Notes under the pieces: generated by a model
Seen by the model: the letters and a program-made list of their open reading frames with translations, nothing else
Databases searched by the model: none
Told to the model about the DNA's origin: nothing
Part shown: piece by piece, positions 4,209 to 42,980 of the stretch
Numbering within the stretch: the stretch's first letter is position 1
Layout: every line of letters starts with the position of its first letter
Program-made: the position numbers and the translations under genes
From: an uncultured Nitriliruptoria bacterium
GTDB lineage: Bacteria > Actinomycetota > Nitriliruptoria > Nitriliruptorales > Nitriliruptoraceae
Direction of reading: 5' to 3'
DNA length: 53,469 nt
Assembly (NCBI GenBank): GCA_965364815.1
Contig: CBDTZE010000001.1
Coordinates: forward strand, 1-53,469

Positions 4209-5648
4209 GTGCAACGGCTCAGCGGCATGGATGCGGGATTCCTGCACATGGAGACGCCCTCCATGCACCTGCACACGCTCAAGATCGGCATCGTCGACCC
4301 GTCGACCGTGCCGGGCGGGTACCGGTTCGAGGAGTTTCGCCAGGTGCTGTCGGACCGACTGCACCTCCTGCCGCCCTTTCGGCAGACGGTCGTCGAGATC
4401 CCCTTCGGCCTGCATCATCCCGTCTGGGTCGAGGACGCCGACTTCGCCATCGACGACCACCTCGTCCGTGTCGCCGTCCCGGCACCCGGGACGATGCGCG
4501 AGGTCGACGAGTTGATCGGGCACATCGCCTCGCGCCCGCTGGATCGATCGCGGCCGCTCTGGGAGATGTGGATCATCGAAGGCCTGGCCGATGGTCGGGT
4601 GGCCTTCGTCACCAAGGTCCACCATGCGGCCGCCGACGGGGTTGCCGCATCCGCGATGCTGGCGAACATCATGTCCGTCGGCCCGGAACTGGCGCCGGTC
4701 GACCCGCCGCCGTTCCGAGGCGAGGCGCGGCCGAGCAATGCCATGCTGGTGGCCCGTGCCTTCGCGGACCACGTCCCGCAGTTCTTCCGCCTGGGTGCCC
4801 TCCTGCGGCGCACGTGGCTGGCGGTCCGAGCGATCATGGCCATGCGCAAGGGTGAAGAGTTGGACACACCCCGTCCCGTCCTCGATGCCCCGATGGCTTC
4901 CTTCAACGGGGCGCTGACGTCACAACGAACCTTCGCGACGGCCTCCCTGCCGCTCGCCGACTTCCGCACCGTCAAGGCCGTCTTCGGCGTCACATTGAAC
5001 GATGTCGTCCTCGCGGTCGTCTCGGGGGCGTTGCGCCGCCACCTCGACCGAAATGGGGAGAAGCTGGACCGTTCCCTGACCTGTTCGGTCCCGGTTGGTG
5101 TGGACGGGCCCGAGGACGGCCCGCGGCTGATCGGCAATCGGGTCTCCAACCTCTTCACGACCCTCGCGACCGACCTCGACGACCCCATTGCTCGGCTTCA
5201 CCGGATCAACCGGGTGACCACCGACGCGAAGCGGATGCAGGAGGCGTTGGGCAAGGACTTCATGGAGTCGTGGATCGAGTACACCCCACCGCCACTGCTC
5301 AAGGCGTTCGTGAAGCTCTACACCCGGTACCGCTTCGCCGACCGCCATCGGCCACCGCAGAACCTCGTCGTGTCGAACGTGCCGGGGCCCCGCGAGCCGC
5401 TCCACGTCGCCGGGGCGCGCCTGACCGACCTCTACTCGGTCGGGCCGATCATGGAGGGCATGGGCCTGAACGTCACCGTGTGGAGCTACGTCGATCGCAT
5501 GAACTTCAGCGCCCTCGCCTGTCGGAACCGGCTGCCGAAGTTGCACCTCGTCGTGGACGACTTTGCCGTTGCGCTGGCGGAGTTGGTGGACCTCGCAGCC
5601 GGTGCTGACAGGGGCACGACGTCGGCCGGAGCCCCGCCAGGGTCGTGA
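4209..5648 (+). CDS. Wax ester synthase/diacylglycerol acyltransferase (WS/DGAT)
   Basis: GTG start. Family-typical N-terminus MQRLSGMDAGFLHMET and the diagnostic HHxxxDG motif (KVHHAAADGVAAS). 479 aa. Confidence 0.9.
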   Translation: MQRLSGMDAGFLHMETPSMHLHTLKIGIVDPSTVPGGYRFEEFRQVLSDRLHLLPPFRQTVVEIPFGLHHPVWVEDADFAIDDHLVRVAVPAPGTMREVDELIGHIASRPLDRSRPLWEMWIIEGLADGRVAFVTKVHHAAADGVAASAMLANIMSVGPELAPVDPPPFRGEARPSNAMLVARAFADHVPQFFRLGALLRRTWLAVRAIMAMRKGEELDTPRPVLDAPMASFNGALTSQRTFATASLPLADFRTVKAVFGVTLNDVVLAVVSGALRRHLDRNGEKLDRSLTCSVPVGVDGPEDGPRLIGNRVSNLFTTLATDLDDPIARLHRINRVTTDAKRMQEALGKDFMESWIEYTPPPLLKAFVKLYTRYRFADRHRPPQNLVVSNVPGPREPLHVAGARLTDLYSVGPIMEGMGLNVTVWSYVDRMNFSALACRNRLPKLHLVVDDFAVALAELVDLAAGADRGTTSAGAPPGS

Positions 5649-8858: not shown

Positions 8859-10982
8859 ATGACCAACACCATCCACCAGGGCCACGCCACGCCAGCCGAC
8901 ACCGCAGAGGCAGCGGGTGACGCTCACGCGCCGCTGGGCGTCGACGGCCCCGACGGACACCACGACGAGTCCGGCGGGGATGGAGGCCACAGCGGTCATG
9001 GGGGTCACGGTGACCACTCCGCGATGTTCCGTGACAGGTTCTGGGTCAGCCTCGGCCTGACGCTCGTCGTCGTCTTCTTCAGCGACATGGTCCAGGAGTG
9101 GTTCGGCTACACCGCCCCGGCCTTCCCCGGTTCCGAGGCGATCGCCCCCGTGCTCGGAACCTTCATCTTCGCCTGGGGAGGTCGCGTCTTCCTCGAGGGC
9201 GGGGTGCAGGAGGTCCGTGACCGCCAGCCCGGCATGATGTTGCTGATCTCCTTGGCGATCGTCGTGGCGTTCTCGGCCAGCGTGGCCACGGAGTTCGGGT
9301 TGGTCGATCTGGACTTCTGGTGGGAGTTGGCCGCGCTGGTCAGTGTCATGCTGCTTGGGCACTGGCAGGAGATGCGGGCCATCGGACAGGCCCGCGGGGC
9401 GCTGGCTGCCTTGGCGGACCTGTTGCCCGACGAGGCCGAACGTGTCGGGCAGGAAGGCGAGGTCACCACCGTGCGGATCTCCGACCTGCGCAAGGGCGAC
9501 ATCGTCCTGGTGCGCCCCGGCGCGCGTGTCCCGGCCGACGGCACCATCGTCGAGGGCGACAGCGCCTTCGACGAGTCCATGCTCACGGGCGAGTCCAACC
9601 CGGTCGACCGGGTCGTCGGCGACGCGGTCATCGCCGGGTCGGTGTCCATCGCTGACGCCGTCCGCGTCGAGGTCTCCGCCGTCGGCGATGCGACCGCGCT
9701 GGCTGGCATTCAGAGGCTCGTCAGCGAGGCGCAGCAGTCCACGTCCCGTACACAGCGTCTGGCCGACCGGGCCGCGGCGTGGCTGTTCTGGTACGCGCTG
9801 GGGGCTGCCGCCGTCACGGCGGTCACGTGGATGATCGTCGGAACCCCCGAAGACGCCGTGGTTCGCACGGTGACGGTGCTGGTGATCGCCTGCCCCCACG
9901 CCCTGGGCCTGGCGATCCCTCTCGTGGTGGCGCTTTCCACGGCCAAGTCAGCCCAGGCCGGCGTCCTGGTCAAGGACCGCCTGGCCCTCGAGCGGGTTCG
10001 GTCGGTGGACGCGGTGCTGTTCGACAAGACCGGGACCTTGACCGCTGGCGAGCACGTCGTCACGGACCTCGTGACCGACGGCATCGACGAGAACGAAATG
10101 CTGGGTCTGGCGGCGGCCGTCGAAAGCTCTTCAGAGCATCCGCTGGCTCGCGCGATCGTCGCACGCGCCACGGAGGCGGGTGCCGCAAAGCGTGCAGCGA
10201 GTGACTTCGAGGCACAGACCGGCCGAGGCGTGGAGGCAACCGTCGACGGCCGTCGTGTCGCCGTAGGGGGGCCGTCTCTGCTGCGTGAGCGCGGCGTGCA
10301 ACCGGGTGGTCATCTTGTCGAGGTGACCGACGCATGGGCCGCGCGTGGTGCGGCGGTGCTGCATGTGTTGGTGGACGGGAAGGTTGTCGGTGCGTTCGGG
10401 CTGGAAGACCGAATCCGGGACGAGTCGCGTGCTGCCGTCGAGGCGCTCCATGCACGGGGCATCGAGGTCGTGATGATCACGGGTGACTCCAAGGCCGTGG
10501 CTGACCATGTCGGCCGCGAGTTGGGGATCGACCGGATCTACGCCGAGGTCCTGCCAAGGGACAAGGACGAGGCCGTGCGCGAACTGCAGGCACAGGGCAA
10601 GGTCGTCGCGATGGTCGGCGACGGGGTCAACGACGCCCCGGCCCTGGCGCGTGCGGACGTGGGCATCGCGATCGGTGCTGGGACGGATGTGGCGATCGAG
10701 TCCGCCGGCATCGTCCTCGCGTCGGACGACCCCCGCGGTGTGCTCTCGCTCCTGCGACTGTCGGAGGCCAGCTACCGCAAGATGGTGCAGAACCTCGTCT
10801 GGGCAACCGGCTACAACGTGCTGGCGGTGCCCCTGGCCGCGGGCGTTCTTGCGCCGATCGGGTTCGTGCTGGCCCCGGCCGTCGGTGCCGCGCTCATGAG
10901 CATCTCCACGATCATCGTCGCGGTGAACGCCCAGTTGCTCCGGCGCGTCGACCTCAGCTTCGAGACCGTCGCCGGAGCGTGA
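8859..10982 (+). CDS. copB: Heavy-metal (copper) P1B-type ATPase, CopB-like (P1B-3)
   Basis: DKTGTLT, SEHPLA, GDGVNDAPAL; transmembrane CPH motif (VIACPHALGLAIP). His-rich N-terminus (HHDESGGDGGHSGHGGHGDH) in place of a CxxC domain. ATG at 8859 is preceded by GGAG; the track start at 8832 is a TTG inside the palindrome. Confidence 0.9.
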   Translation: MTNTIHQGHATPADTAEAAGDAHAPLGVDGPDGHHDESGGDGGHSGHGGHGDHSAMFRDRFWVSLGLTLVVVFFSDMVQEWFGYTAPAFPGSEAIAPVLGTFIFAWGGRVFLEGGVQEVRDRQPGMMLLISLAIVVAFSASVATEFGLVDLDFWWELAALVSVMLLGHWQEMRAIGQARGALAALADLLPDEAERVGQEGEVTTVRISDLRKGDIVLVRPGARVPADGTIVEGDSAFDESMLTGESNPVDRVVGDAVIAGSVSIADAVRVEVSAVGDATALAGIQRLVSEAQQSTSRTQRLADRAAAWLFWYALGAAAVTAVTWMIVGTPEDAVVRTVTVLVIACPHALGLAIPLVVALSTAKSAQAGVLVKDRLALERVRSVDAVLFDKTGTLTAGEHVVTDLVTDGIDENEMLGLAAAVESSSEHPLARAIVARATEAGAAKRAASDFEAQTGRGVEATVDGRRVAVGGPSLLRERGVQPGGHLVEVTDAWAARGAAVLHVLVDGKVVGAFGLEDRIRDESRAAVEALHARGIEVVMITGDSKAVADHVGRELGIDRIYAEVLPRDKDEAVRELQAQGKVVAMVGDGVNDAPALARADVGIAIGAGTDVAIESAGIVLASDDPRGVLSLLRLSEASYRKMVQNLVWATGYNVLAVPLAAGVLAPIGFVLAPAVGAALMSISTIIVAVNAQLLRRVDLSFETVAGA

Positions 10983-14903: not shown

Positions 14904-15542
14904 TCAGGCCGTGGCGACGCCCCGCACCTGGGTCCGCACGTGCATGGCCTCCGGTCCGGCGAGGACCTCCTCGATGACCACCTTCGAGAATCCGGCTCCT
15001 TCGATCGTCGTCGCGGTGTCCCGAGTGACGTCGCAGCCGTTGAACATCCAGCGGTGTGCCCGACGCAGGATGGCCTGGACGCGACGAAGGTTGGACCCGT
15101 CGGCCGCACCCACGTGCTCGACGAAGACGAAGCTGCCACCCGGGCGCAGGACCCGCAGCACCTCGGCGAGGACGGCTTCGGGGTCATCGACGCCGCACAG
15201 CACCAGGGTTCCGACGACCGCATCGGCCGAGGCATCCGGCACCTCGAGCGACTCGCCACGCAGCGTGCGGATCTCGAGGGCGACGCTGTGCTTGGTCGCG
15301 GCGTCGGCCAGCCGGTGGTGCATCGCGGGGTTCGGTTCGATCCCGATGACCTGGACGCCGGCCCCGTAGTAACGCATGTTCGCGCCCGTCCCCGGGCCGA
15401 GTTCGACGATCACCCCCGTGAGCGCCCCGATCTCGCGCTCCTTGAACCGCCCGTGGAGTTTGTGGGTCGCGGCAGCGCCGGCGTCCAGCAGGACGGCTTC
15501 GACGTGGCTGCGCACCGGTCGATGCGTCAAGTCACTGGGCAT
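14904..15542 (-). CDS. Class I SAM-dependent methyltransferase
   Basis: Motif I VIVELGPGTGAN and post-I/II LRVLRPGGSFVFVEH. Track ORF 14904..15980 trimmed to the ATG at 15542 (MPSDLTH...). Confidence 0.8.
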   Translation of the reverse strand: MPSDLTHRPVRSHVEAVLLDAGAAATHKLHGRFKEREIGALTGVIVELGPGTGANMRYYGAGVQVIGIEPNPAMHHRLADAATKHSVALEIRTLRGESLEVPDASADAVVGTLVLCGVDDPEAVLAEVLRVLRPGGSFVFVEHVGAADGSNLRRVQAILRRAHRWMFNGCDVTRDTATTIEGAGFSKVVIEEVLAGPEAMHVRTQVRGVATA

Positions 15543-15591: not shown

Positions 15592-15608
15592 TCTGACGAC
15601 CCGTCAGA
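15592..15608. promoter_or_regulatory. Candidate operator, copy 1: TCTGACG-ACC-CGTCAGA
   Basis: Perfect 7-3-7 inverted repeat in the divergent methyltransferase/acyl-CoA dehydrogenase intergenic region. Identical 17-mers occur at 15625, 39528 and 42982. Confidence 0.6.
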
Positions 15609-15624
15609 TACGGTCTGGAGCAAA

Positions 15625-15641
15625 TCTGACGGGTCGTCAGA
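15625..15641. promoter_or_regulatory. Candidate operator, copy 2 (reverse complement): TCTGACG-GGT-CGTCAGA
   Basis: Exact reverse complement of copy 1. Centres are 33 bp apart. It ends 24 nt before the GTG of the acyl-CoA dehydrogenase gene. Confidence 0.6.
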
Positions 15642-15665: not shown

Positions 15666-16862
15666 GTGGACTTCAGCTACGCGCCCGAGGTCGAGACCTT
15701 CCGCAAGGAGGTCCGCCAGTTCATCGAAGAGAACTGGGACGACGAGATCATGGACCCCCGTCGTGAGGGGATGGCCCAACTGGTCGACACGCCCTCTCGC
15801 CGTGACTTCATGAAGAAGATCGCTGAGCGCGGCTGGTTGGGGATGACCTGGCCCAAGGAGTTCGGCGGCAAGGACATGCCGGGCATCTACGAGTACGTCC
15901 TCAACGAGGAGTTGGCGTCCGTGGGCGCCCCGTACATCGGCAAGGGCGTGGGAATCGTGGGCAAGACCCTGATCCGCCACGGATCAGAGAAGCTCAAGGC
16001 CCAGTTCCTGCCACAGATCCTGAACGCCGAGATCGAGTGGGCCATCGGCTACACGGAACCGGAGGCGGGCTCGGACCTCGGCGCACTGGCCATGCGCGCC
16101 GTCCGTGACGACGTCAACGGCGGCTGGCGCATCAGCGGCCAGAAGCGCTTCACGACGTCGGCTCACTTCGCCGAGTGGTACTGGCTGGCCGTGCGGACCG
16201 ACTCGTCCGTCGGCAAGCACAAGGGCGTCAGCCTGATGATCCTGCCGATGGATGCCGACGGCATTCAGATCACGAACATGCCGACCATCGGCGATGAGCG
16301 AGTCAACGAGGTCTATCTCGATGACGTCTTCGTCGCGGACGACATGGTCGTCGGTGAGGTCGACAAGGGCTTCTACTACGTCTCGGAAGCGCTGGACTTC
16401 GAGCGCTTCACGCTGTTCACCGTCTCGGCCTACGTCAACAAGTACTCGTTCGTCCGGGACTGGGCCCGAGAGGCCACACGCGACGGCAAGCCCCTCAAGG
16501 ACGACCCGGCCGTCCGCACGGAGATCGCCCGACTGGCGCGCAACGTGCATGCGGCGAAGATGATCACGGCACAGGTGATCGCGAAGGCCTCGATGGGCGA
16601 GGTCCCCAACATCGAGTCCGCGATGTTCAAGTTGTGGGCCACCCAGATCGGCCAGGAAGCGGCCGATGCTGCGCTGCGCTGGGCCGGACCGGCCGGCGCG
16701 CTGCGACGCGGGGCGTCGAATGCCCCCGACGACGGACGCTTCGAACACTCCTTGCGTTACACGGTGGTGGACACCGTTGGCGCCGGAACCAGCGAGGTGC
16801 AACGCAACATCATCGCGCGTCGCGGGTTGGGGCTTCCGGTCAACAACGGCGTCAAGGCCTGA
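15666..16862 (+). CDS. Acyl-CoA dehydrogenase
   Basis: GTG start. GYTEPEAGSDLGAL mid-domain motif and C-terminal GTSEVQRNIIARRGLGLP. 398 aa. Confidence 0.9.
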   Translation: MDFSYAPEVETFRKEVRQFIEENWDDEIMDPRREGMAQLVDTPSRRDFMKKIAERGWLGMTWPKEFGGKDMPGIYEYVLNEELASVGAPYIGKGVGIVGKTLIRHGSEKLKAQFLPQILNAEIEWAIGYTEPEAGSDLGALAMRAVRDDVNGGWRISGQKRFTTSAHFAEWYWLAVRTDSSVGKHKGVSLMILPMDADGIQITNMPTIGDERVNEVYLDDVFVADDMVVGEVDKGFYYVSEALDFERFTLFTVSAYVNKYSFVRDWAREATRDGKPLKDDPAVRTEIARLARNVHAAKMITAQVIAKASMGEVPNIESAMFKLWATQIGQEAADAALRWAGPAGALRRGASNAPDDGRFEHSLRYTVVDTVGAGTSEVQRNIIARRGLGLPVNNGVKA

Positions 16863-16864
16863 CG

Positions 16865-18022
16865 ATGGGCAACGGACCTCTCGACGGCGTCTGCGTCCTG
16901 GACCTGTGCACGGTCGGGCCCGGCGCCCGCGCGGCAGCGCTGCTGGCTGACCTCGGTGCAGACGTGGTCAAGGTCGGTCCGCCGGCCTCGGCCAACCGCA
17001 TCGTGGCTGCGGACTGGGCCTACAGCGCGGCCCGCGGATGCCGGCGCATCGGCATCGACCTGAAGCAGGAGCGTGGCCGCTCGGCTTTCTTCGCGCTGGC
17101 GCAGACGGCCGACGTGGTCCTCGAAGGCTTCCGACCCGGCGTGGCCGACCGCATCGGCGTCGGGTTCGAGGCCGTTCGGGAACACAACGACGCCATCGTC
17201 TATGCCTCGCTCACCGGGTACGGCCAGGACGGGCCGTGGGCACAGTGGGCCGGACATGACGTGAACTACCAGGCCGTGGGCGGGGCGCTTTCACAGCAGG
17301 GGCGCGATGCCGATGGCGTGCCTGCGCTTCCGGGCGCGACCTGGGCTGACAGCGCAGGTGGTGGGATGCAGGCCGCGCTGTCGATCTGCGCGCACCTGGT
17401 GGTCGACCGCGACCGCCGGGAGGCCGTGCACCTCGACGTGTCCGCGACCGACGGCGTCCTGAGTGCGATGAGCCTGCTGGTCGACGAGCATCTCGCGACC
17501 GGCGTCGAGCACCACCCGGGGACCAGCATCCTGACCGGGCGCTACGCCTGCTACGGGGTGTACCGATGCGCCGATGGCGAGTTCGTGGCCGTCGGTGCGA
17601 TCGAGTCCGTCTTCTGGCGCAACCTCTGCCGGTTGCTGCAACTTGATGATCTCGCGGAGTTGCAACGCGACGACGCTCGCCAGGACGAGGTCCGGGCGGC
17701 CCTCGCCGCGAGGTTCGCGACGGGGACGCGCGACGAGTGGGTGGCGCTCCTGGGGCCGGCGGACACCTGTGTCTCGCCGGTGCTGTCGCCGCAGGAGATC
17801 GTCGCGAACGAGCACCTCGCGGCCAGGGGTTCCGTCGCCGAGGTCAAGGTCGGGGCGGACACCCAGTCGCAGGTGGCGCGCGTGGTGGCTGGCGCCGTGC
17901 GACCCCAAGGACCGGAGACCGGTGCCGCGGTGGCGGACACGGATGCCCGTGATCTGCTGGGACGCGCGGGCCTCGGTGAGGCCGAGGTGCAGGAACTGCT
18001 TGACCAAGGGGTGGTGCGATGA
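16865..18022 (+). CDS. Family III CoA-transferase (CaiB/BaiF; alpha-methylacyl-CoA racemase-like)
   Basis: MGNGPLDGVCVLDLCTVGPGARAAALLADLGADVVKVGPP and DVVLEGFRPGVADRIG are typical of the family. Track ORF trimmed to the ATG at 16865, 2 nt after the upstream stop. Confidence 0.85.
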   Translation: MGNGPLDGVCVLDLCTVGPGARAAALLADLGADVVKVGPPASANRIVAADWAYSAARGCRRIGIDLKQERGRSAFFALAQTADVVLEGFRPGVADRIGVGFEAVREHNDAIVYASLTGYGQDGPWAQWAGHDVNYQAVGGALSQQGRDADGVPALPGATWADSAGGGMQAALSICAHLVVDRDRREAVHLDVSATDGVLSAMSLLVDEHLATGVEHHPGTSILTGRYACYGVYRCADGEFVAVGAIESVFWRNLCRLLQLDDLAELQRDDARQDEVRAALAARFATGTRDEWVALLGPADTCVSPVLSPQEIVANEHLAARGSVAEVKVGADTQSQVARVVAGAVRPQGPETGAAVADTDARDLLGRAGLGEAEVQELLDQGVVR

Positions 18023-18555
18023 CGCTTGCCAAGCAGATCGAGGACGCTCCCGTGCCCGCCCGTTCCGACGACGAGGTGGCGCAGTGGGTCGGCGTGACCC
18101 TTGATGCCGGCTTCGGCGAGATCGAGGCCGAGCAGGGCTACGTCACGCACTGGATGGAAGCCACGGAGAACGACAACCCGATCTACTGGTCTCCAGAGGT
18201 CGCGGAGGTCATCGTCGGGCATCGGATCGCGCCCCCGACCATGCTGAGCGTCTGGATGCGGCCGCTGATGCACAAGCCGGGCCGCGAGGAGTTCCTGCGT
18301 CCGTTGGAGCTGCACTTCCGTCTCAAGGACGCCCTCGCGTTGCCCAAGGGCATCGTCGCCAGCAACGACATCACCTTCGGCGAGCCGGTCCGGCTGGGGG
18401 ACCGGGTGCGCACGGTCCAGTCGGTGCGTTCCATCTCGCCGGTCAAGACCATCAGCCTTGGCACCGGACGCTTCTGGACCATCGACGTCACCTACACCAA
18501 CCAACGCGAGGAAGTCGTGGGCGTCGAGTCCTACGACTTCTTCTGCTACTCGTGA
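18019..18555 (+). CDS. MaoC_dehydrat_N-type hotdog protein (hydratase subunit, ChsH2-N-like)
   Basis: GYVTHWMEATENDNPIYWSPE...IAPPTMLSVW is typical of the N-terminal half of MaoC dehydratases. ATGA overlap with the CoA-transferase stop. Confidence 0.75.
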   Translation: MTLAKQIEDAPVPARSDDEVAQWVGVTLDAGFGEIEAEQGYVTHWMEATENDNPIYWSPEVAEVIVGHRIAPPTMLSVWMRPLMHKPGREEFLRPLELHFRLKDALALPKGIVASNDITFGEPVRLGDRVRTVQSVRSISPVKTISLGTGRFWTIDVTYTNQREEVVGVESYDFFCYS

Positions 18556-18565
18556 AGGGTCGCTG

Positions 18566-19045
18566 ATGGATCGCACGCCACACCGCACCGGCCGCAACGT
18601 CGCCGTCGGCGACACCCTGCCGGAGCTCCGCATCGAGGTCACCCCACGCACCGTCGTGATGGGCGCCTCGGCAAGCCGGGACTGGCAGCCACAGCACCAC
18701 GACCACGTGCACTGCACCCAGGTCGCCAACCTGCCCGACATCTTCCTGAACACGCCGCACCAGGCGGGCTACATGGAGCGGTACCTGACCGACTGGTCGG
18801 GGCCGCACGGACGCTTGGCCAAGCTCGGTTTCCGGATGAAGAAGACCGTGGTGCCGGGGGACACGATGGTGCTGAACGCCACGGTCACCGAGGTCGTGCC
18901 CGACGAGGACATTGTCGAGGTCGGCATCGAGGTCACGTTGCACGTCGGTGGCGACGTGGCCACCTACTGCACGGCGCGGGTGGCTCTGCCCGCGACCGAA
19001 GACGACAACCCGTGGAATCGCCGCGGAAGCGAATGGACGCCCTGA
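18566..19045 (+). CDS. MaoC-like (R)-specific enoyl-CoA hydratase subunit (ChsH1-like)
   Basis: ASRDWQPQHHDHVHCTQVANLPDIFLNTPHQAGYMERYL... shows a hotdog pattern. Track ORF trimmed to the ATG at 18566. Paired with the preceding hotdog gene. Confidence 0.75.
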   Translation: MDRTPHRTGRNVAVGDTLPELRIEVTPRTVVMGASASRDWQPQHHDHVHCTQVANLPDIFLNTPHQAGYMERYLTDWSGPHGRLAKLGFRMKKTVVPGDTMVLNATVTEVVPDEDIVEVGIEVTLHVGGDVATYCTARVALPATEDDNPWNRRGSEWTP

Positions 19046-20190
19046 TGAACCTCACCCAGACCGAGGAGCAGGTTGCCCTGCGGGACGCCGTGCGGGAGCT
19101 GTGTGCGAAGCACGGCGGACCCGACGAGCTCCGCGAGCTCGAGGACGACCCCAAGGGCTACCGGGATGCCTTCTGGCGCGAGCTCGCCCAGATGGATCTG
19201 CTGGGGCTGGGCCTGCCTCCGGAGCACGGTGGCTCGGGGATGGGCCTGCTCGACCAGGCGGTCGTGGCCCAGGAGCTCGGGCGGTCGATCGTCCCCTCGC
19301 CATGGTTCCCGACCATCGCCGTGTGCGCCCCTCTGCTGGTCGAGGCCGGCAGCGACGAACAGCAGGCGGCGTGGCTCCCACGGATCGCGAAGGGCGAGGC
19401 TGTCGTCGTTCCGGCGTGGCACGAGCCAGGCAACTCAGAGACCGAGGCTGGGATTCAGCTGACTGCGTCTCCCAGCGATGACGGGTTCTCGCTGACGGGG
19501 ACAAAGATCTTGGTCCCGATGGCCTCGTCCGCGGACGCGTTCCTCGTCCTGGCCCGGACCGGCGACGATGCCGTGGGGATCTTCCTCGTGGCCGCGGATG
19601 CCCCCGGCCTGGAGCTGGTCCAGACCGTCTCGTTGGCATCGGATGCCCAGTACGAGCTGCGCTTCGACGGCGTCGGGGCCCAGGCCGTCGGCGCCGTCGA
19701 CGGCGGGTGGAAGGCCTTCGAGACCGTCATGGCCCGGGCGTTGATCCTGGCCTCGGCGTACGCACTCGGTGGATCGGAGGCCGCGCTCGACATGACGGCC
19801 GAGTACGCCAAGGAACGCGTGCAGTTCGGGGTGCCGATCGGAAACTTCCAGGGCATCGCCCACCCGATCGCCGACCGTGCCACGGAGATCGAGGCCGCCC
19901 GCACCATGATCCAGTATGCGTCGTGGCTGGCCGATGAGGGCAGCACCAGCCTGGCGTTGTCTGCGATGACCAAGCGCCACGCAGCGGAGACCTGGCGGAT
20001 GACCACGAGGACCGGGCAGCAGACCTTCGGTGGTGTGGGGTTCACCCGAGCCCTCGACATCCAGCTCTACTTCCGGCGGGCGAAGCAGTGGGAGCTGTCC
20101 TGGTTCGGGCCAGCCGTCCTCGACGAGTGGGTGGCCGCGGCGGAGTTGGACGCGCCCCGACCGATGATCGGCCACGACCTCAACGTGTGA
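19045..20190 (+). CDS. Acyl-CoA dehydrogenase
   Basis: MNLTQTEEQVALRDAVRELC... and C-terminal FGGVGFTRALDIQLYFRRAKQWE. The start overlaps the preceding stop (TGATG). Confidence 0.85.
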   Translation: MNLTQTEEQVALRDAVRELCAKHGGPDELRELEDDPKGYRDAFWRELAQMDLLGLGLPPEHGGSGMGLLDQAVVAQELGRSIVPSPWFPTIAVCAPLLVEAGSDEQQAAWLPRIAKGEAVVVPAWHEPGNSETEAGIQLTASPSDDGFSLTGTKILVPMASSADAFLVLARTGDDAVGIFLVAADAPGLELVQTVSLASDAQYELRFDGVGAQAVGAVDGGWKAFETVMARALILASAYALGGSEAALDMTAEYAKERVQFGVPIGNFQGIAHPIADRATEIEAARTMIQYASWLADEGSTSLALSAMTKRHAAETWRMTTRTGQQTFGGVGFTRALDIQLYFRRAKQWELSWFGPAVLDEWVAAAELDAPRPMIGHDLNV

Positions 20191-20341: not shown

Positions 20342-20356
20342 CTGACAAGGTGTCAG
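20342..20356. promoter_or_regulatory. Palindrome CTGACA-AGG-TGTCAG upstream of the TetR gene
   Basis: Perfect 6-3-6 inverted repeat about 19 nt before the TetR start. It has the same architecture as, and 5 of 6 half-site bases in common with, the TCTGACG-NNN-CGTCAGA boxes. Confidence 0.5.
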
Positions 20357-20374: not shown

Positions 20375-20986
20375 TTGGTGCGCACAGTGGCCACAGTGAG
20401 CGCGGCGCGATCGAGGAGGTCGCTGGAAGAGTCACGAGACCTCATCCTCGACGGGGCCCGAAGGGTGCTCGAGACCACCACGGTGGCCGACGTCACCGTC
20501 GGGGACGTCATGGCCGAGACGCCACTGGGACGGTCGAGCTTCTACGTGCACTTCGCCGAGTTGCACGACGTGTGGCAGGCGCTGCTCGAAGGCAATGTCA
20601 GCCTGTTCGTGGAGCCGGTCAAGCCCTACCTCGAGGTACCCAGCCGCGAGACCTTGGGTGTCGCCATCCGCGGACTCGTCGACGTCTGGTACCCCAACCG
20701 ACGGTGGTGGGGTGAGTTGGTCGGATCGGCCATGGCCGGCGGCTCACGACTCAGCCGCCAGTGGCGTCGCACGGAGTTGGACCTGTGGGGCCCCACCATC
20801 GGCGCCCTGGTCCCCGCCGACGCCCCCGTGGTGCGGGCCGGGGCCGCGCGTGAGGCAGCGGGGCGGCAGATCGTTCTGCTCCTGATGGCCACGCTGGCAG
20901 AGGTCGCCCATGACGACCACATCGACCAAGTGGTCCTCAAGGACTCGCTGGTGGCCCTTGCGACGGCCGCCTTCTACGGCGCCTGA
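20375..20986 (+). CDS. TetR-family transcriptional regulator
   Basis: N-terminal HTH region SLEESRDLILDGARRVLETTTVADVTVGDVMAETPLGRSSFYVHF. The track start at 20375 is TTG. GTG at 20378, with GGAG 5 nt upstream, is equally likely. Confidence 0.85.
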   Translation: MVRTVATVSAARSRRSLEESRDLILDGARRVLETTTVADVTVGDVMAETPLGRSSFYVHFAELHDVWQALLEGNVSLFVEPVKPYLEVPSRETLGVAIRGLVDVWYPNRRWWGELVGSAMAGGSRLSRQWRRTELDLWGPTIGALVPADAPVVRAGAAREAAGRQIVLLLMATLAEVAHDDHIDQVVLKDSLVALATAAFYGA

Positions 20987-21004: not shown

Positions 21005-21721
21005 GTGGCAGAGTTCCGGGACGTCGAGGGCCGTCGCCTGACCCTGCCGGTCGAGATTCGTGACGCCGCAGTGGGGACCGCGGTCTTCCGCGGCGACCTG
21101 CGGGCCGCCCGGGCATTGTTGCCCGACGGGTTGGCCCCGGTCCGGATCGGGCCCAACACGACGCCAGTGACGCTGGTCATGGCCGACTACCGGGACAACG
21201 ACATCGGGACCTACCGCGAGGTGGCGATCCAGTTGGCCGTCGCCCGTCCCGGGCCCCGTGGCCAGGTCGGGGCCCTGGCGAGGATCGCGTCGGGACGGCC
21301 GGACACGTGGACCGTGGCCATGCCCGTGACGCTGGAGGCCAGCAGAGCTGCCGGTTGCCAGATCTGGGGGTTTCCCAAGACCCTCGACGACGTCCAAATC
21401 GAGATCGGTCCGTCCCGCGCGTCGTGCCACTGGCACGCCGACGGGGACCACGTCCTGACGCTGTCGGTGCCGGTCGGTCGGTCACGCGAGATGCAGGCGC
21501 CACCGCTGCGAGCCTTCACGATGCTCGACGGTCAGCTGTCCCGGACTGACTTCCGGATGGGGGCCGATCATGGACGGCTCGGCCTCGGCGGCGCTGCCCT
21601 CGAGCTCGGCGACCACCCCGTGGCCGAGCAGTTGCGCGACCTCGGGTTGTCGAGGCGTGCAATGCTCACCACGTGGATGGACGACGTCACGGCGTCCTTC
21701 GGAGCGCCGAAGGCCGACTGA
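21005..21721 (+). CDS. Acetoacetate decarboxylase (ADC)-family protein
   Basis: GTG start 18 nt after the TetR stop. The pattern ...VTLVMADYRDNDIGTYREVAIQL...GFPK... is typical of ADC-like beta-cone proteins. Assigned by eye. Confidence 0.65.
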   Translation: MAEFRDVEGRRLTLPVEIRDAAVGTAVFRGDLRAARALLPDGLAPVRIGPNTTPVTLVMADYRDNDIGTYREVAIQLAVARPGPRGQVGALARIASGRPDTWTVAMPVTLEASRAAGCQIWGFPKTLDDVQIEIGPSRASCHWHADGDHVLTLSVPVGRSREMQAPPLRAFTMLDGQLSRTDFRMGADHGRLGLGGAALELGDHPVAEQLRDLGLSRRAMLTTWMDDVTASFGAPKAD

Positions 21722-21751
21722 CCCGACTGACCCGCTTGACCCGCCTGCGCC
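21716..21751. repeat. Degenerate 9-bp tandem repeat (GACTGACCC x2, GCTTGACCC, GCCTGCGCC)
   Basis: Read directly. It starts over the stop codon of the ADC-like gene and extends into the intergenic region before the histidine kinase gene. Confidence 0.5.
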
Positions 21752-21846
21752 TCTTGGGCCGGTCAGGTGTCACGATCGGGCCGCTCTGCGTGGATGGCGG
21801 CAGGCTGGGCCGACTGGCCGAAGAACAAGCACCCCCGGGAATTTGC

Positions 21847-23616
21847 ATGGCAGCCGTCGAACTTCTCTCGCAGCTGGCCTACCTGGCTTGCGTCGTCGTC
21901 GCCGTGCGGCTCTGGGCATCCAACCGGACGCGACAGGCCGCGTGGTCGGCCGCGACGTTCACGCTGCTCGGGACCCTCGTGGTCGTGGGCTTCTTCCTCG
22001 AGGACGACCAGGTCCTGCCCGACCCGTGGGGCAAGCTGTTCATCGTCCTGGTTCTCCTGCTCCCGTGGTTCCTGTGGCGTTTCGCGGACTCCGTCGTCGC
22101 GGCACCCCGTGCCCTGCGCCTGGTGGTCGATGTCGTCGCTGTCGGCACCGCGCTCTCCGCGCTGGTCATCGAGCTTCCCGACCCCACCGCCACCCCGACG
22201 TCTGCCCAAGAGGCCTACATCCTGGTCATCGTGGGGGTCTGGTTCGCCCAGGCCATCCTGACGACGGGGTTGCTGTGGCGTGCCAGCATGGGGCAGCCCG
22301 GTGTGACCCGTGGCCGCCTGAGGATGCTCGGGCTCGGCGCGATCCTCTTGGGCTTCGCCGTCGTCGCAGGCTCCGGGCCTGGCACCGAGGAGACGAACCA
22401 GGCGATCTCCCAGGTCTTCTCCCTGGCCGCGGCCGTCACGTTCCTCGTCGGCTATGCGCCGCCCAGATCCCTGCGCCAGGCGTGGCGTGGCCCCGACGAG
22501 GCTGCGCTCTACCACGCCGCGGTCGGACTCCTGGAGGCACAGGAGGCACAGGAGGTCGAGCACGTTCTGCTTCCCGGGCTGGCACGGCTGCTCGGTGCCG
22601 CGGAGGTCACCGTCGTCGACGACGAGGCTGCAGCGTCAGCTGCGGGTGAAGGCGAGATGCGGATCCAACTCGGACCGTGGACACTCGGGTTCGCCCAGGC
22701 GCCTTCGATGCCGCTGTTCGGTGCGGGTGAGGAGGAACTCGTCAGCCGACTGGGCCTCATGGCGAACCTCGCCACCGAGCGCGTCCGCCTGCATGCATCG
22801 GAGCGCGTTGCCCGTGAAGAGGCCGAGGCGGCTTCCGCGGGTCTCGCCAGGGCCAACCGCGACCTCGAGTCGGTCAACGACGAACTCGAGGCCTTCGTCT
22901 ACTCGACCTCACACGACCTGAAGAACCCGATCATCGCGATCCTGGGCTATGTCGAGGTGCTGCAGAAGGACTTCTCCGAGCAGTTGCCCGAGGATGCTGC
23001 CTGGTACATCGAGCGCATGTCCGTCAATGCCCGGTTCATCGACTCGCTGATCCGTGACCTGCTGGAGCTCTCACGGGTCGGGCGCATGGAGACCACCCGC
23101 TCACACGTCGACCTCAACGAGTTGCTCACCGGCATCACCGTCGATGCCGTGCAGCGTCACCCGGAGCTTGAGCTCACGGTCAACTGGCCCGACGACCTCC
23201 CGGCCCTCGAGGCCAATCCGACGCGAGCACGCCAGTTGTTGGAGAACATGGTCGAGAACGCTGCCCGGTACGCCGGCCGGCCTGACGTCCGCGTTGACAT
23301 CGCCTGCGTCCAGGACACGGCGGGGATCACCCTCCACATCCGTGACAACGGCCAGGGCATCCCGGCGGAGCAGTGCGAACGGATCTTCGGGATGTTCGAG
23401 CGACTCGACCCCGACAAGGCCACCGGGACCGGCATCGGGCTGGCGATCTGTCGACGCATCGTCGAGCAACTCGGTGGACAGATCGACGCCCTGCCCTCCG
23501 GTGACGGAGCACACTTCCGCATCAGCCTCCCGGCCGAGGCGTTGTCTGGCGACGGACATGGTCACACCGACTCTGGCATCATTGATCCGGACGCGCCGAT
23601 GAAGGCAACCGCATGA
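21847..23616 (+). CDS. Membrane sensor histidine kinase (multi-TM N-terminal sensor)
   Basis: About 6-7 hydrophobic helices, then H-box STSHDLKNPIIAILGYVEVL, N-box LENMVENAARYA and G-box GTGIGLAICRRIVEQLGG. Track ORF trimmed to the ATG at 21847 (MAAVELLSQLAYLA...). Confidence 0.85.
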   Translation: MAAVELLSQLAYLACVVVAVRLWASNRTRQAAWSAATFTLLGTLVVVGFFLEDDQVLPDPWGKLFIVLVLLLPWFLWRFADSVVAAPRALRLVVDVVAVGTALSALVIELPDPTATPTSAQEAYILVIVGVWFAQAILTTGLLWRASMGQPGVTRGRLRMLGLGAILLGFAVVAGSGPGTEETNQAISQVFSLAAAVTFLVGYAPPRSLRQAWRGPDEAALYHAAVGLLEAQEAQEVEHVLLPGLARLLGAAEVTVVDDEAAASAAGEGEMRIQLGPWTLGFAQAPSMPLFGAGEEELVSRLGLMANLATERVRLHASERVAREEAEAASAGLARANRDLESVNDELEAFVYSTSHDLKNPIIAILGYVEVLQKDFSEQLPEDAAWYIERMSVNARFIDSLIRDLLELSRVGRMETTRSHVDLNELLTGITVDAVQRHPELELTVNWPDDLPALEANPTRARQLLENMVENAARYAGRPDVRVDIACVQDTAGITLHIRDNGQGIPAEQCERIFGMFERLDPDKATGTGIGLAICRRIVEQLGGQIDALPSGDGAHFRISLPAEALSGDGHGHTDSGIIDPDAPMKATA

Positions 23617-24047
23617 GCACATTCCGCATCCTGGTGGTCGACGACAACCCGGATCACCGCTTCTTCATCAAGCGAGCCCTCGCGGGTGTCGGCACGGACA
23701 TGGCCGTCGACACGGTCAGCGATGGCGAAGAGGCCCTCGGGTTCCTGCGTGCCGAGGCCCCGTTCGAGGATCGCAAGGCGCCCCACATGGTGCTGCTGGA
23801 CCTGCGCATGCCCCGGCTCAGTGGGCTCGAGGTCCTCGCGGAGATGCGCAAGGACGATGCCCTGCGGGCGGTGCCCGTGGTGGTGCTCACCAGTTCGGAT
23901 CGCCCCCAGGACGTCCGCGAGGCCTATGAGGCAGGGACCAACTCCTACGTCGTCAAGTCTGGCGACGTCGAGGGCCTGCGTCGGGAGATCGCCTCGCTGT
24001 CGGAGTTCTGGATGGGCACGAGCCGTGTCCCGGAGCCGAGCGAGTGA
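23613..24047 (+). CDS. Single-domain response regulator (receiver only, Rcp1/CheY-like)
   Basis: ILVVDDNPDHRFF...MVLLDLRMPRLSGLEVL...VVVLTSS...YVVK. 144 aa with no output domain. ATGA overlap with the kinase stop. Confidence 0.9.
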   Translation: MSTFRILVVDDNPDHRFFIKRALAGVGTDMAVDTVSDGEEALGFLRAEAPFEDRKAPHMVLLDLRMPRLSGLEVLAEMRKDDALRAVPVVVLTSSDRPQDVREAYEAGTNSYVVKSGDVEGLRREIASLSEFWMGTSRVPEPSE

Positions 24048-25603
24048 TCATCACCACCCCGGTCCTCGAGGCGTCCCGCACGGACGCCATCCGGGTGTTG
24101 CTCGTCGAGGACAGCATCGATCACCAGATGTTGGTCAGGCGATCACTTGAGCGCGCTGGTTACGAGGTCGTGGTCGCGAGCTCCGGCGAAGCCGCCCTCG
24201 AGGCGCTCGCGGGAGATGTGGAGTTCCATCTCGCGCTCATCGACCAGGGCCTTCCCCGGATGTCGGGCACGGAGTTGCTGGCCCACGTCGTGGCGATGCC
24301 TGGTGGCCCCGGCGCAGTGATGGTCACGGCCTCCGCCGACGCCAAGCTCGTGGTCAAGTCGTTGCGTGCCGGGGCCGTGGACTTCGTGAGCAAGCAGGCC
24401 GGCTACCTCGACGTGCTTCCCGCGGTCGTCGAACGGGCCCACCGTCAGTGGGACCTGCGTCAACGGACCCGTGAGCTGCAGCGCGTGGCTTTGCTGGTGC
24501 ACGGGGCCTCGGGGTTGGAGGAGACGGTCGGTGAGGTCGTGGACGGCATCTGTCGTCTCCTGCGCGCCCCGAACGCCGTCCTGATGCTGCACGACGACGA
24601 GGCAGGCTCGTGGCGTCCCGGCGCTCGCACGGGTGACGAGGCGGAGCTGACCACGCATGTTGCTCGCGACCTCGCACAACGCCGGACCGAGGACGTCGAG
24701 CAGCGCGAGGGTCTGCTGGTCGTGCGCCTGCCCGCCGAACTGGACGAGCAGGCCGGCGCGTTGGTGGTCCAGCGTGATGCGGCTCAGCCCTTCGTCGCCG
24801 AGGAGGAGGAGCTGGCCAAGACCTTCGCCGCCTTCGCGTCGTTGGCACTGCGCCAGGCCCGACGGGCCGAGCTCGAGGGAGGCCTGATCGAAGAGTTGCA
24901 GCAGACCATCCGGGCTCGACGCGACTTCGTTGCCTCCGTGTCCCACGAGCTGCGCACGCCACTGACGTCCATCGGCGGTTACGCGGAGACGATCCAGCGT
25001 CACCGTGACCAGTTGGAACCCGCGGCGATCCTCGACCTGGTGGATCGGATCGGTCGCCATGCCGGGGATCTGGAACGGTTGATCGACCAACTCATCGACG
25101 TCGCCAAGATCGAACGCGGCGCACGGTTCGTCCCGACGATGGCTGCGCTCAGTCTTGACGGGGCGATCGCTGATGCCGTCGAAGCCGTTGAGCAGGTGCT
25201 TGTGGGTCGCGAGGTCAGCACCGACGTCCCGGCGGTGGAGATCAACGGCGATCCCGACTTCCTGAACCGCATCATGGCGAACCTGCTGACCAATGCGGTC
25301 AAGTACTCCGAGCCCGGCACGCCCATCTGGATCGAGGCCCGGGCCGACGCCTCACGAGTCGAGATCGTCGTTCGTGACGTCGGCATCGGGATCGATCCCA
25401 ACGAGACCGTCCTGGCCTTCCAGCCGTTCTGGCGAGCCGGTCACGCGGTCGGCCAGGCCGTGCGGGGCATGGGCATCGGGCTGTCGTTGGTTCGCGAGTA
25501 CGTCACCGCAATGTCGGGTGAGGTCGGCTGCCGACCGGGCCCGGAGGGCGTCGGCTCCGAGTTCTGGTTCCACCTGCCGCTGGCGGGCGTCAGCGTCGAG
25601 TGA
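24044..25603 (+). CDS. Hybrid REC-GAF(-like)-HisKA-HATPase histidine kinase
   Basis: N-terminal receiver (IRVLLVEDSIDHQMLV...ALIDQGLPRMSG), central GAF-like segment, H-box VSHELRTPLTSIGGYAETI, LLTNAVKYS, GMGIGLSLVREY. GTGA overlap with the upstream stop. Confidence 0.85.
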   Translation: MIITTPVLEASRTDAIRVLLVEDSIDHQMLVRRSLERAGYEVVVASSGEAALEALAGDVEFHLALIDQGLPRMSGTELLAHVVAMPGGPGAVMVTASADAKLVVKSLRAGAVDFVSKQAGYLDVLPAVVERAHRQWDLRQRTRELQRVALLVHGASGLEETVGEVVDGICRLLRAPNAVLMLHDDEAGSWRPGARTGDEAELTTHVARDLAQRRTEDVEQREGLLVVRLPAELDEQAGALVVQRDAAQPFVAEEEELAKTFAAFASLALRQARRAELEGGLIEELQQTIRARRDFVASVSHELRTPLTSIGGYAETIQRHRDQLEPAAILDLVDRIGRHAGDLERLIDQLIDVAKIERGARFVPTMAALSLDGAIADAVEAVEQVLVGREVSTDVPAVEINGDPDFLNRIMANLLTNAVKYSEPGTPIWIEARADASRVEIVVRDVGIGIDPNETVLAFQPFWRAGHAVGQAVRGMGIGLSLVREYVTAMSGEVGCRPGPEGVGSEFWFHLPLAGVSVE

Positions 25604-28736: not shown

Positions 28737-28756
28737 AACTAGAACGTGTTACAGTT
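28737..28756. promoter_or_regulatory. KstR-type operator (AACTAGAACGTGTTACAGTT)
   Basis: The core TAGAACGTGTTACA fits the published KstR consensus TnnAACnnGTTnnA. It lies in the 125-bp divergent region between the cyclase-family gene and the acyl-CoA dehydrogenase pair. Confidence 0.7.
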
Positions 28757-33214: not shown

Positions 33215-33236
33215 AAAACTAGAACACGTTCTAGTT
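33215..33236. promoter_or_regulatory. KstR-type operator, perfect palindrome AAACTAGAAC-AC-GTTCTAGTTT
   Basis: Perfect 10-2-10 inverted repeat. The core TAGAACACGTTCTA fits TnnAACnnGTTnnA. It lies 59 nt upstream of the LLM oxidoreductase ATG. Confidence 0.75.
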
Positions 33237-33294: not shown

Positions 33295-34494
33295 ATGGAG
33301 TTCGGAATCTTCCTGCAGGGCCACGTGCCGTCGAAGCGCGTGGAGGAGAACCCCGCCTTCGAGCACTACGCGCTGATGCGCGAGGTCGAGATCGCGAAGG
33401 CGGCCGACAAGGCCGGCTTCAAGTACGTCTGGGCGTCGGAGCACCACTTCCTGCAGGAGTACTCCCACCTCTCCGACTCCGGCGCGTTCCTCGCGTTCGT
33501 GGCAGCGCAGACGGACTACATCCACGTCGCCACCGGCATCCGCAATCTCTCCCCGAGGGTGAACCACCCGATCCGCGTGGCCGAAGAGGTCGCCATGATG
33601 GACCACCTCTCCGAGGGTCGGTTCGAGTTGGGGACGGGGCGCGGCGCGGGCTGGCACGAGGTCCAGGGCTTCGACATTCCTGACACGAAGGTCACCAAGG
33701 CCTGGTGGAACGAAGTCATCCGCGAGCTGCCCAAGATGTGGCGCTCCAACGAGTACGAGTTCGAAGGCGAGTTCTTCCGGGTCCCGGGCAAGCGGCAGAT
33801 CCTGCCCAAGCCCTACCTGCACTCGCACCCTGCCATGTGGCAGGCGTGCGGCAACCCGGCGTCCTGGGAGAACGCCGGCCACATGGGGCTCGGCGCCATC
33901 GGCTTCTCCATCAGCACCATCGACTCCATGGCCCCCCGCGTCGAGGCCTACAAGAAGGCGCTGGCCTCGGCTGAGCCCGTCGGCGAGTGGGTCAACGACA
34001 ACGTGATGGCGACCAACATCGCGATCTGCCTCGAGGACGGAGACCTTGCACGCAAGGTCATGGCGGAGTCCGGCACCGTGCGACTCCACGCGGGCGTGCA
34101 CCGTTACCACTCGACCATGCCGAAGTCCGACCACATCCCGGACTGGCCCGAGGTCATGCCCGACCCGTCCGTCGAGATGATCGACCTCGGGATCCAGCAT
34201 GGCTACATGGCCTGCGGCAACCCCGACGAGGTCATCGAGCAGCTCAAGCGTTACGAGGCCACGGGCATCGACCAGATCAGCTTCTCGCTGCCGGTCGACA
34301 TCTCCCAGGAGCACTGCCTCGAGACCATCCGCCTGCTGGGCGAGCACGTGATCCCGAAGTTCGACAAGGACCGCGAGCACCGCACCACACGGATGCGTGC
34401 CTCGGCCGACGTGCCCAGCTGGGAGTCCCAGGTCGTCGCGCGCACCAGCGGCCCGGGCATCGAGCCGGATGCGACGGGCGTCCTGCCCGCCTGA
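33295..34494 (+). CDS. Luciferase-like (LLM class) flavin-dependent oxidoreductase/monooxygenase
   Basis: MEFGIFLQGHVP...AGFKYVWASEHHFLQEYSHLS...RFELGTGRGAG is typical of LLM monooxygenases. GGGAGGG RBS. Confidence 0.85.
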   Translation: MEFGIFLQGHVPSKRVEENPAFEHYALMREVEIAKAADKAGFKYVWASEHHFLQEYSHLSDSGAFLAFVAAQTDYIHVATGIRNLSPRVNHPIRVAEEVAMMDHLSEGRFELGTGRGAGWHEVQGFDIPDTKVTKAWWNEVIRELPKMWRSNEYEFEGEFFRVPGKRQILPKPYLHSHPAMWQACGNPASWENAGHMGLGAIGFSISTIDSMAPRVEAYKKALASAEPVGEWVNDNVMATNIAICLEDGDLARKVMAESGTVRLHAGVHRYHSTMPKSDHIPDWPEVMPDPSVEMIDLGIQHGYMACGNPDEVIEQLKRYEATGIDQISFSLPVDISQEHCLETIRLLGEHVIPKFDKDREHRTTRMRASADVPSWESQVVARTSGPGIEPDATGVLPA

Positions 34495-34549
34495 CCTGAC
34501 GCCGAGGGCTGGCATCGGGCAGGATGGGGTTCCTGTCCCAGGAGCCAGC

Positions 34550-36922: not shown

Positions 36923-37126
36923 TCAGAGCGGGGAGACCTTCTGGGCCTGCGGGCCCTTACGGCCTTCGCCGATCTCAAAGTTCACGCGCTGACCCTCGTC
37001 GAGCGACTTGTAGCCGCTCGTCTGGATCTCGGAGAAGTGGACGAAGAGGTCTTCGCCGCCACCGTCCGGCTCGATGAAGCCGAAGCCCTTGTCGGCCTTG
37101 AACCACTTGACTGTTCCTTCTGGCAT
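36923..37126 (-). CDS. cspA: Cold-shock protein (CspA family)
   Basis: [34 protein letters not shown] carries RNP1 (KGFGFI) and RNP2 (LFVHF). 67 aa. About 165 nt of upstream non-coding DNA is consistent with a long csp 5' UTR. Confidence 0.95.
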
Positions 37127-38308: not shown

Positions 38309-38310
38309 GG

Positions 38311-39474: not shown

Positions 39475-39521
39475 GTCTTCTCCACGTCGTGCTCCGCGAG
39501 GTCCCGCGAAACGCGACGGTA

Positions 39522-39550
39522 GTCGTTTCTGACGACCCGTCAGAAACGAC
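39522..39550. promoter_or_regulatory. 29-bp perfect palindrome GTCGTTTCTGACG-ACC-CGTCAGAAACGAC containing candidate operator copy 3
   Basis: 13-3-13 inverted repeat. The core 39528-39544 is identical to the 15592 box. It abuts the transglutaminase stop (39551) and lies 48-76 nt upstream of the acyl-CoA dehydrogenase GTG (39474). It could also act as a terminator hairpin. Confidence 0.6.
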
Positions 39551-40435: not shown

Positions 40436-40437
40436 CG

Positions 40438-42842: not shown

Positions 42843-42980
42843 GAAGGGGAGGTCCTCTTGTCGAGCACCTTGGACCTTAGGAGCGTGAGGCTGCTGGCGT
42901 GTGGCAAACGGTCACCTGGCTCCGGAATCGGACAGGGCGTCTTGGCTGGTGCCTGCGTGGGCAGGGGCCGCTCCTCGGTA

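Follow-up and report, generated by a model that had tools for sequence, protein, structure and literature searches.

The catabolism of steroids and lipids in actinobacteria is usually described in terms of two regulators, KstR and KstR2, both of which are TetR repressors released by CoA thioesters. Many clusters of fadE, thiolase, monooxygenase and SDR genes have no assigned regulator. EthR, a further TetR-type protein, binds DNA as a multimer. The TetR protein Rv0302 lets go of DNA when palmitate binds (PMC6768106), and KstR3 of Mycolicibacterium neoaurum is a TetR repressor of sterol side-chain genes, namely of an operon comprising aldolase, DUF35 and reductase genes (PMC10398937).

The stretch of DNA analyzed here (53,469 nt, referred to as the window) contains a recurrent 17-mer palindrome at the promoters of acyl-CoA-processing operons. 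The 17-mer is very probably the operator of a transcription factor and defines a lipid- or steroid-type catabolic regulon that is distinct from that of KstR. A dimeric EthR-like repressor of the TetR family is the predicted binding protein, with an estimated probability of about 0.55 to 0.6.

Sequence and Positions of the 17-mer

The genes of the window were called from third-position G+C and then checked by Pfam; the positions of the palindromes and of the neighboring genes are listed in Table 1. The sequence TCTGACG-ACC-CGTCAGA is present in four exact copies, three on the plus strand and one as the reverse complement. A motif search against shuffled sequences confirmed the four copies that the first-pass annotation had placed at 15592, 15625, 39528 and 42982. 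Dinucleotide shuffles gave 0.29 expected matches at up to three mismatches, as opposed to 8 observed in the window, the latter value arising because palindromic sites each score on both strands. All four copies are intergenic and are followed by a start codon 18–57 nt downstream, in agreement with the 18–80 nt proposed earlier. Each is a perfect palindrome with a 7-3-7 architecture, as found in operators that are short (13–17 bp), lie in promoters and offer two half-sites to a homodimer. The similarity of the flanks claimed in the same annotation was judged correct; beyond the palindrome, the flanks differ among the four copies. The window, which derives from a metagenome assembly (ENA ERZ25083857), has a G+C content of 67–71%.

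Table 1. Palindromic sites, target operons and candidate regulator gene in the window, and palindromes upstream of homologous TetR genes at other loci (L numbers).
Feature	Position	Strand	Sequence	Remarks
Site 1	15592–15608	+	TCTGACGACCCGTCAGA	methyltransferase/fadE divergent spacer
Site 2	15625–15641		TCTGACGGGTCGTCAGA	reverse complement of site 1; ends 24 nt before fadE start codon 15666
Site 3	39528–39544	+	TCTGACGACCCGTCAGA	53 nt upstream of fadE start 39474 (-)
Site 4	42982–42998	+	TCTGACGACCCGTCAGA	between ATP-grasp operon (-) and DUF35/thiolase operon (+)
Methyltransferase gene	14904–15542	-		divergent; shares the spacer of sites 1 and 2
Target operon 1	15666–20190	+		acyl-CoA dehydrogenase, family III CoA-transferase, FAS1_DH/MaoC, MaoC, acyl-CoA dehydrogenase
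Target operon 2	37292–39474	-		acyl-CoA dehydrogenase genes 38311–39474 and 37292–38308, downstream of site 3
Target operon 3	43017–47111	+		DUF35/ChsH2-type OB-fold, SCP-x-type thiolase-like, thiolase, Old-Yellow-Enzyme-type flavin reductase
EthR-like TetR-family regulator gene	20375–20986	+		candidate repressor; after operon 1
Variant palindrome	20342–20356		CTGACAaggTGTCAG	ends 18 nt upstream of the EthR-like TetR gene
L122, upstream of TetR			TTGACAccgTGTCAG	
L124, upstream of TetR				two sites
L126, upstream of TetR			TTGACActtTGTCAG	
L127, upstream of TetR			CTGACAcccTGTCAG	
L129, upstream of TetR	9905–9976			four abutting TGACA-N3-TGTCA sites
L131, upstream of TetR	9945–9987			three sites mixing TGACA and TGACG half-sites

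Sites 1 and 2 are separated by 33 bp from center to center, and both are situated inside a 123-bp divergent spacer. Site 3 is located 7 nt past the stop codon of a transglutaminase-like gene and forms the core of a 31-bp perfect palindrome (39521–39551) with 14-bp arms; the palindromes of sites 1, 2 and 4 extend less far. When the plus strand is read, the final base of this 31-bp palindrome is the first base of the stop codon of the upstream gene. At site 4, the GTG start codon of the DUF35 gene (43017) lies 18 nt downstream, and the start of the divergent ATP-grasp gene is 139 nt away. Site 1 abuts a −10-like hexamer, TACGGT (15609–15614), and site 4 is overlapped by another, TATTCT (42979–42984), while a TACCGT hexamer is found on the minus strand 6 nt off site 3 (39516–39521). 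These three hexamers are putative promoter elements. A scan of the window for E. coli-type promoters and terminators returned no prediction, an outcome that is expected for the host phylum.

Each site could form a hairpin with a stem of 7–8 bp and a 3-nt loop, the stem reaching 14 bp at site 3, and sites 1 and 2 could jointly fold into an 18-bp stem. The 17-mer might, consequently, act as RNA or as single-stranded DNA, in the form of a terminator, an attenuator or an element of the 5'-UTR. This capacity is, however, shared trivially by any palindrome, and a function of this kind is very improbable. The terminator scan detected neither a terminator-like site nor a T-run at the sites of the window, and no Rfam family reached its gathering score anywhere in it. 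Furthermore, the arms are conserved by sequence and not by compensatory change across the 120 loci listed below, and the element is symmetric, is found in either orientation, and also occurs between divergent genes, where it would lie outside at least one of the transcripts.

Conservation at an Orthologous Promoter

The promoter region of operon 1 has a counterpart in L127, a 260-kb metagenome scaffold from a different organism (ENA ERZ23499148, scaffold_46). The gene order of the window, comprising the methyltransferase gene, the five-gene fadE operon and the TetR-like gene, is found again in this scaffold, with identities of 88% for the fadE protein and about 45% for the TetR-like protein; the synteny of operon 1 is also kept in L122. 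The spacer of L127 contains TCTGACGGGTCGTCAGA at 5119–5135, followed by TACCGT, and TCTGACGACCCGTCAGA at 5155–5171, both identical to the sites of the window at 17 of 17 positions. In a pairwise alignment of the two spacers, the 17-mers are retained together with a short intervening core (TAC[C/G]GT ... GAGCAAA), and the outer parts display substitutions and indels. The centers of the sites are swapped, reading ACC..GGT in the window and GGT..ACC in L127, and the distance between them is 36 bp in L127 versus 33 bp in the window. Because these two spacings provide no fixed helical phase, the cooperative binding to the tandem pair that had been suggested in the first-pass annotation is doubtful.

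Gene Context in the Window

The methyltransferase gene that faces fadE across the spacer of sites 1 and 2 may be co-regulated as a further target. Sites 3 and 4 are separated exactly by an operon of ATP-grasp, alpha-E and transglutaminase genes (39551–42842) that is unrelated to lipid catabolism. It looks as if this operon had been inserted into a former divergent fadE/DUF35-thiolase promoter region that contained two sites. At the end of the window (50311–53468), a nitronate-monooxygenase-like gene, two genes for CoA-transferase subunits and an enoyl-CoA hydratase gene resemble ipdC, ipdAB and echA20 of steroid ring C/D degradation; their promoter probably lies beyond the window end.

A histidine kinase, a stand-alone receiver and a hybrid receiver-GAF-kinase are encoded directly after the TetR/decarboxylase gene pair (21673–25603), as is also the case in L122, and a protein with an adenylate/guanylate cyclase domain is encoded (34397–36211) after the luciferase-like monooxygenase (LLM) gene that carries a KstR box. 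Signaling genes are thus embedded in the catabolic island. An apparent gap of 474 bp harbors a cold-shock protein gene on the minus strand (36923–37126) with about 165 nt of non-coding DNA upstream, and the same gene occupies the same place in L127 (19525–19728).

Distribution Across Genomes

The pattern TCTGACGNNNCGTCAGA was scanned against one genome per species (185,579 species) and was found at 120 or more loci. Among the matches listed (n = 120), 98 belong to Actinomycetota and 22 to other bacteria, the former comprising 47 loci from Streptomycetaceae, 32 from Acidimicrobiia and 19 from other Actinomycetota. Cultured carriers of the motif with complete genomes include Aquihabitans sp. G128 (NZ_CP077604) and Streptomyces sp. 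NBC_00829 (NZ_CP108867). The excess of Actinomycetota represents a strong enrichment because high-G+C DNA gives the pattern no additional likelihood of occurring by chance. The actinobacterial loci listed have an A or T flanking the motif on each side, and those from Acidimicrobiia favor G-N-C or ACC at the center (ACC or GGT in 9 of 33 sites). The non-actinobacterial matches, devoid of a flank or center preference, look like chance occurrences. When the seeds are excluded, further CTGACG-N3-CGTCAG sites amount to 17 in the Streptomyces loci listed (0.04 expected), 2 in those of Acidimicrobiia (0.03 expected) and 2 in those of other Actinomycetota (0.015 expected), and none is present in the non-actinobacterial loci listed.

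The placement of the motif bears on the REP-like repeat that was the main alternative in the first-pass annotation. A repeat of this kind, or a miniature mobile one, would play no part in regulation. The identity of four sites at 17 of 17 positions within one 53-kb window would fit such a repeat, as would site 3, which lies just past a stop codon and has a long hairpin. Against this, 33 of the 72 classifiable actinobacterial sites listed lie between divergent genes and 31 between co-directional genes, with only 6 in convergent and 2 in coding positions. The search of related genomes relative to start codons that had been proposed earlier thus reveals a bias toward the promoter side among the matches listed (64 of 72 sites from other genomes), the median distance from motif to start codon being about 25 nt at the actinobacterial loci. 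In addition, conservation is confined to the palindrome, with variable flanks; target-site duplications and a longer repeat unit are both absent; orthologous promoters in different genomes have the motif at the same positions; and the functions of the neighboring genes are coherent. A repeat origin fails on these grounds and is considered highly improbable.

The gene families downstream of the motif form a coherent set. Among the loci listed, they include Bac_luciferase (14), SDR (11), acyl-CoA dehydrogenase (7, plus 3 in the window), AMP-binding (6), thiolase/SCP-x-type (6), enoyl-CoA hydratase (4), Amidohydro_2 (4) and CoA_transf_3 (3), followed by Amidohydro_3, aldehyde dehydrogenases and others. 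Seven acyl-CoA dehydrogenase genes found in MAGs of other Acidimicrobiia or actinomycetes are homologous to those of the window, and the motif is their sole common upstream feature. It is often followed directly by TAnnnT, sometimes located 7–9 nt before the start codon, a position that suggests leaderless transcripts. Hexamers of the TAnnnT type abut many of the sites.

Two arrangements were observed in Streptomyces. A cluster present in L012, L015, L023, L072 and L075 consists of an Amidohydro_2 gene, an LLM (306 aa)-SDR unit and an LLM (374 aa)-Amidohydro_3-ALDH-permease unit; it contains 3–5 CTGACG-N3-CGTCAG sites, with 1–2 ahead of each transcription unit, and no regulator gene was found within 8 kb. 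Tandem pairs exactly 24 bp apart occur in L013 (5348/5372), L030 (7126/7150), L033 (5164/5188) and L051 (1731/1755). These pairs have mixed TGACA/TGACG half-sites and are located upstream of a gene of unknown function encoding about 750 aa; further sites in the same four loci adjoin genes for a small membrane protein and a secreted BD-FAE esterase.

The Candidate Regulator

The EthR-like gene at 20375–20986 is followed by an acetoacetate-decarboxylase-like gene (21005–21721). The match of its product to Pfam TetR_N is marginal (E = 0.0026), but homologues carry both PF00440 (TetR_N) and PF21313 (EthR_C), and the family profile matches Rv0302 and EthR (Rv3855) of M. tuberculosis over residues 5–202 with an E value of ~1e-14. 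A TetR_N helix-turn-helix domain and an EthR-type C-terminal ligand domain are thus recognized through homologues and PDB matches, in agreement with the earlier assignment of this gene to the TetR family. Among proteins of solved structure, EthR and Rv0302 ('AcrR') are nearest to the candidate. The plasmid collection contains no homologue of the 20375–20986 product. In the window, L122, L124 and L127, operon 1 is immediately followed by the TetR gene, a linkage that persists in relatives whose TetR is only 43–45% identical to that of the window.

The palindrome CTGACAaggTGTCAG preceding the TetR gene is presumed to be its autoregulatory operator. At six homologue loci (25–67% identical), palindromes of the form TGAC(A/G)-N3-(C/T)GTCA likewise precede the TetR gene by no more than 100 bp (Table 1). 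The candidate gene thus combines linkage to operon 1 with an upstream site of the same kind, the own sites being of the A variant. Across all seven loci (the window and these six, up to 53 kb each), TGACr-N3-yGTCA is matched only by the TCTGACG sites and by the one to four palindromes in front of each TetR gene. All seven TetR proteins share the conserved recognition helix LGRSSFY[VL][HY]F. The TetR genes of L129 and L131 are more distant and are divergent from alpha/beta-hydrolase genes, and their abutting sites recur with a period of 14 bp. Multimeric binding along the DNA is suggested by this arrangement, which differs from the 33–36 bp spacing of the tandem pair at operon 1. A more distant member of the clade, from Actinoplanes, has TCGACAgtaTGTCGA; no clear palindrome precedes P0020 (L134), and the one upstream of P0060 (L135) is imperfect. 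Single sites in Streptomyces combine TGACA and TGACG half-sites. The common core and spacing, the exclusivity at seven loci, the conserved helix and the mixed half-sites argue for placing the motif in the operator class of this TetR clade. The TetR-type operator proposed in the first-pass annotation is hence supported by near-identical palindromes in front of EthR-like TetR genes.

The palindrome of the regulator gene itself always carries A beside the center (TGACA) and has no outer T, in contrast to the TGACG found at all four target sites. The targets could instead be bound by a paralogue whose specificity is slightly different. The 17-mer may even be the operator of a different, unlinked global regulator (a TetR paralogue or a protein of the GntR, IclR or LysR type), in which case the control exerted by the neighboring EthR-like TetR would be limited to its own TGACA palindrome and the decarboxylase gene beside it. 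In the window and in L127, own and target sites are told apart cleanly by the base next to the center, and most of the motif loci listed have no TetR or other regulator gene nearby. An EthR-like or GRSSFY-type TetR is absent from the 8-kb motif-seeded Streptomyces and Acidimicrobiia loci listed, save for one distant TetR in L017, and no family of transcription factors recurs beside the motif among the matches listed. The lack of a linked TetR at the motif-seeded loci implies that the regulator is encoded elsewhere, unlinked, in those genomes. The motif is also far more widespread than the close TetR clade, a small group for which HMMER gave 8 cluster representatives at E ≤ 1e-30, against 485 at E ≤ 1e-10. 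On the other hand, the EthR-like family has palindromes with exactly this core and spacing, A and G forms occur together in L131 and in Streptomyces sites, and the linkage of TetR and operon 1 is maintained across relatives despite the low identity of the TetR proteins. Control by an unlinked regulator of another kind appears rather unlikely, if still a serious competitor.

The only other regulator gene of the window is the second TetR gene (47121–47735); beyond these two, no gene for a DNA-binding regulator was found. Between this gene and an unannotated gene of 380 aa (47825–48967), two 14-bp direct repeats, ACTGAC[G/C]AGTAGGT, lie 19 bp apart at 47770–47802 and overlap the palindromes AGTAGGTaACCTACT and CCTACTGacCAGTAGG. 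They are probably the operator of the second TetR itself. This protein, named in the first-pass annotation as a candidate binder, was set aside as regulator of the 17-mer because the repeats in its own divergent spacer are different.

Recognition by an EthR-like TetR repressor accordingly remains our preferred interpretation of the 17-mer. The assignment to the 20375–20986 product in particular is tentative, with odds somewhat short of even.

Proposed Mechanism

In the mechanism that we propose, one TetR dimer would bind each palindrome, contacting two TCTGACG half-sites across a 3-bp center. Since the sites overlap or abut the predicted core promoters of three catabolic operons, bound repressor would block RNA polymerase. 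At the first promoter, one site would fill the spacer between the −35 and −10 elements and the second would cover the transcript start. Release of the repressor would be brought about by a hydrophobic intermediate of the pathway, which is probably an acyl-CoA, a fatty acid or a steroid acid. The repressor would also limit its own synthesis through the weaker variant site, CTGACA-N3-TGTCAG.

Comparison with Known Operators and Regulons

Two KstR boxes were identified in the window: TAGAACGTGTTACA at 28740–28753, between the cyclase/SnoaL/SDR/LLM operon and the fadE pair, and TAGAACACGTTCTA at 33220–33233, upstream of the luciferase-like monooxygenase gene (33295). Both are kept at orthologous places in L127 (12501 and 18159). 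The 17-mer itself does not fit the KstR box (TnnAACnnGTTnnA), nor does it conform to the KstR2 box (AnCAAGnnCTTGnT), of which the window contains no exact copy and four matches with one mismatch, all within genes. The presence of canonical KstR boxes at other promoters of the window indicates that the regulon of the 17-mer is separate, and it strengthens the earlier statement that the motif differs from both boxes. Streptomyces homologues of the 33295 monooxygenase gene have the TCTGACG motif instead of a KstR box.

It is improbable that the 17-mer is an operator that has already been characterized, be it that of KstR, KstR2, Mce3R, Nocardioides Lcin1 or BldD. Its location in a steroid- or lipid-catabolic island would be in keeping with such an identity. 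The degenerate consensus of BldD is TNAC-N5-GTNA, which TGAC-N5-GTCA formally fits. This consensus nevertheless leaves the invariant outer TC and the inner G unexplained, and to our knowledge the BldD regulon is developmental and confined to sporulating actinomycetes. The KstR and KstR2 boxes are dealt with above. The operator of Mce3R is non-palindromic and does not match the 17-mer, and neither does the Lcin1 motif, TCCCGGTsACCGGGA. The motifs of a mycobacterial TetR survey and the Nocardioides Lcin motifs in general were likewise discarded, as none matches. A search of the open-access literature for the 17-mer and its variants, including ACGNNNCGT, found only primers and unrelated motifs. 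The motif was termed uncharacterized at the outset, and this description holds for the open-access literature, subscription journals being outside that scope.

The 17-mer is an element of a conventional kind, and its regulator is a candidate. We tentatively propose, as a possibility with odds of little better than one in three, that nCTGACG-N3-CGTCAGn represents a third phylum-wide regulon of lipid- or steroid-type catabolism in Actinomycetota beside those of KstR and KstR2. Such a regulon would be common to Streptomyces and Acidimicrobiia, would be governed by EthR-like TetR proteins with a GRSSFY helix and, in some lineages, would replace KstR at promoters. If true, a third conserved operator would permit sequence-based prediction of regulons in Streptomyces and in the poorly studied Acidimicrobiia. 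It would also flag sets of genes that belong to one pathway, for instance the Streptomyces Amidohydro_2/LLM-SDR/LLM-Amidohydro_3-ALDH cluster with its up to five sites, and it would offer a compact and testable pair of repressor and operator.

Similarities to the KstR and KstR2 systems are evident. As in those systems, fadE, thiolase, hydratase, luciferase-like monooxygenase and SDR operons have palindromic operators that overlap their promoters, and one motif serves many operons and is kept across genera; the 17-mer sites even share a gene island with true KstR boxes. The geometry is different, being 7-3-7 (TCTGACG-N3-CGTCAGA) as opposed to the 6-2-6 of KstR and KstR2 (TAGAAC-NN-GTTCTA and AnCAAG-NN-CTTGnT), and the candidate repressor is EthR-like and not an orthologue of KstR. 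The KstR3 operon, with its thiolase-like aldolase, DUF35 and reductase genes, resembles the operon behind site 4. KstR3, a third TetR repressor of sterol side-chain genes, has no reported operator and is apparently a local regulator. The DNA probe used for Rv0302, TTTCTTGGCGGGAACGCCCACTGG, is unrelated to the 17-mer (PMC6768106). The three to four abutting sites at the more distant homologues recall the multimeric binding of EthR. However, EthR has a single divergent target gene, ethA, whereas the 17-mer is found at three or more separate promoters and throughout the phylum.
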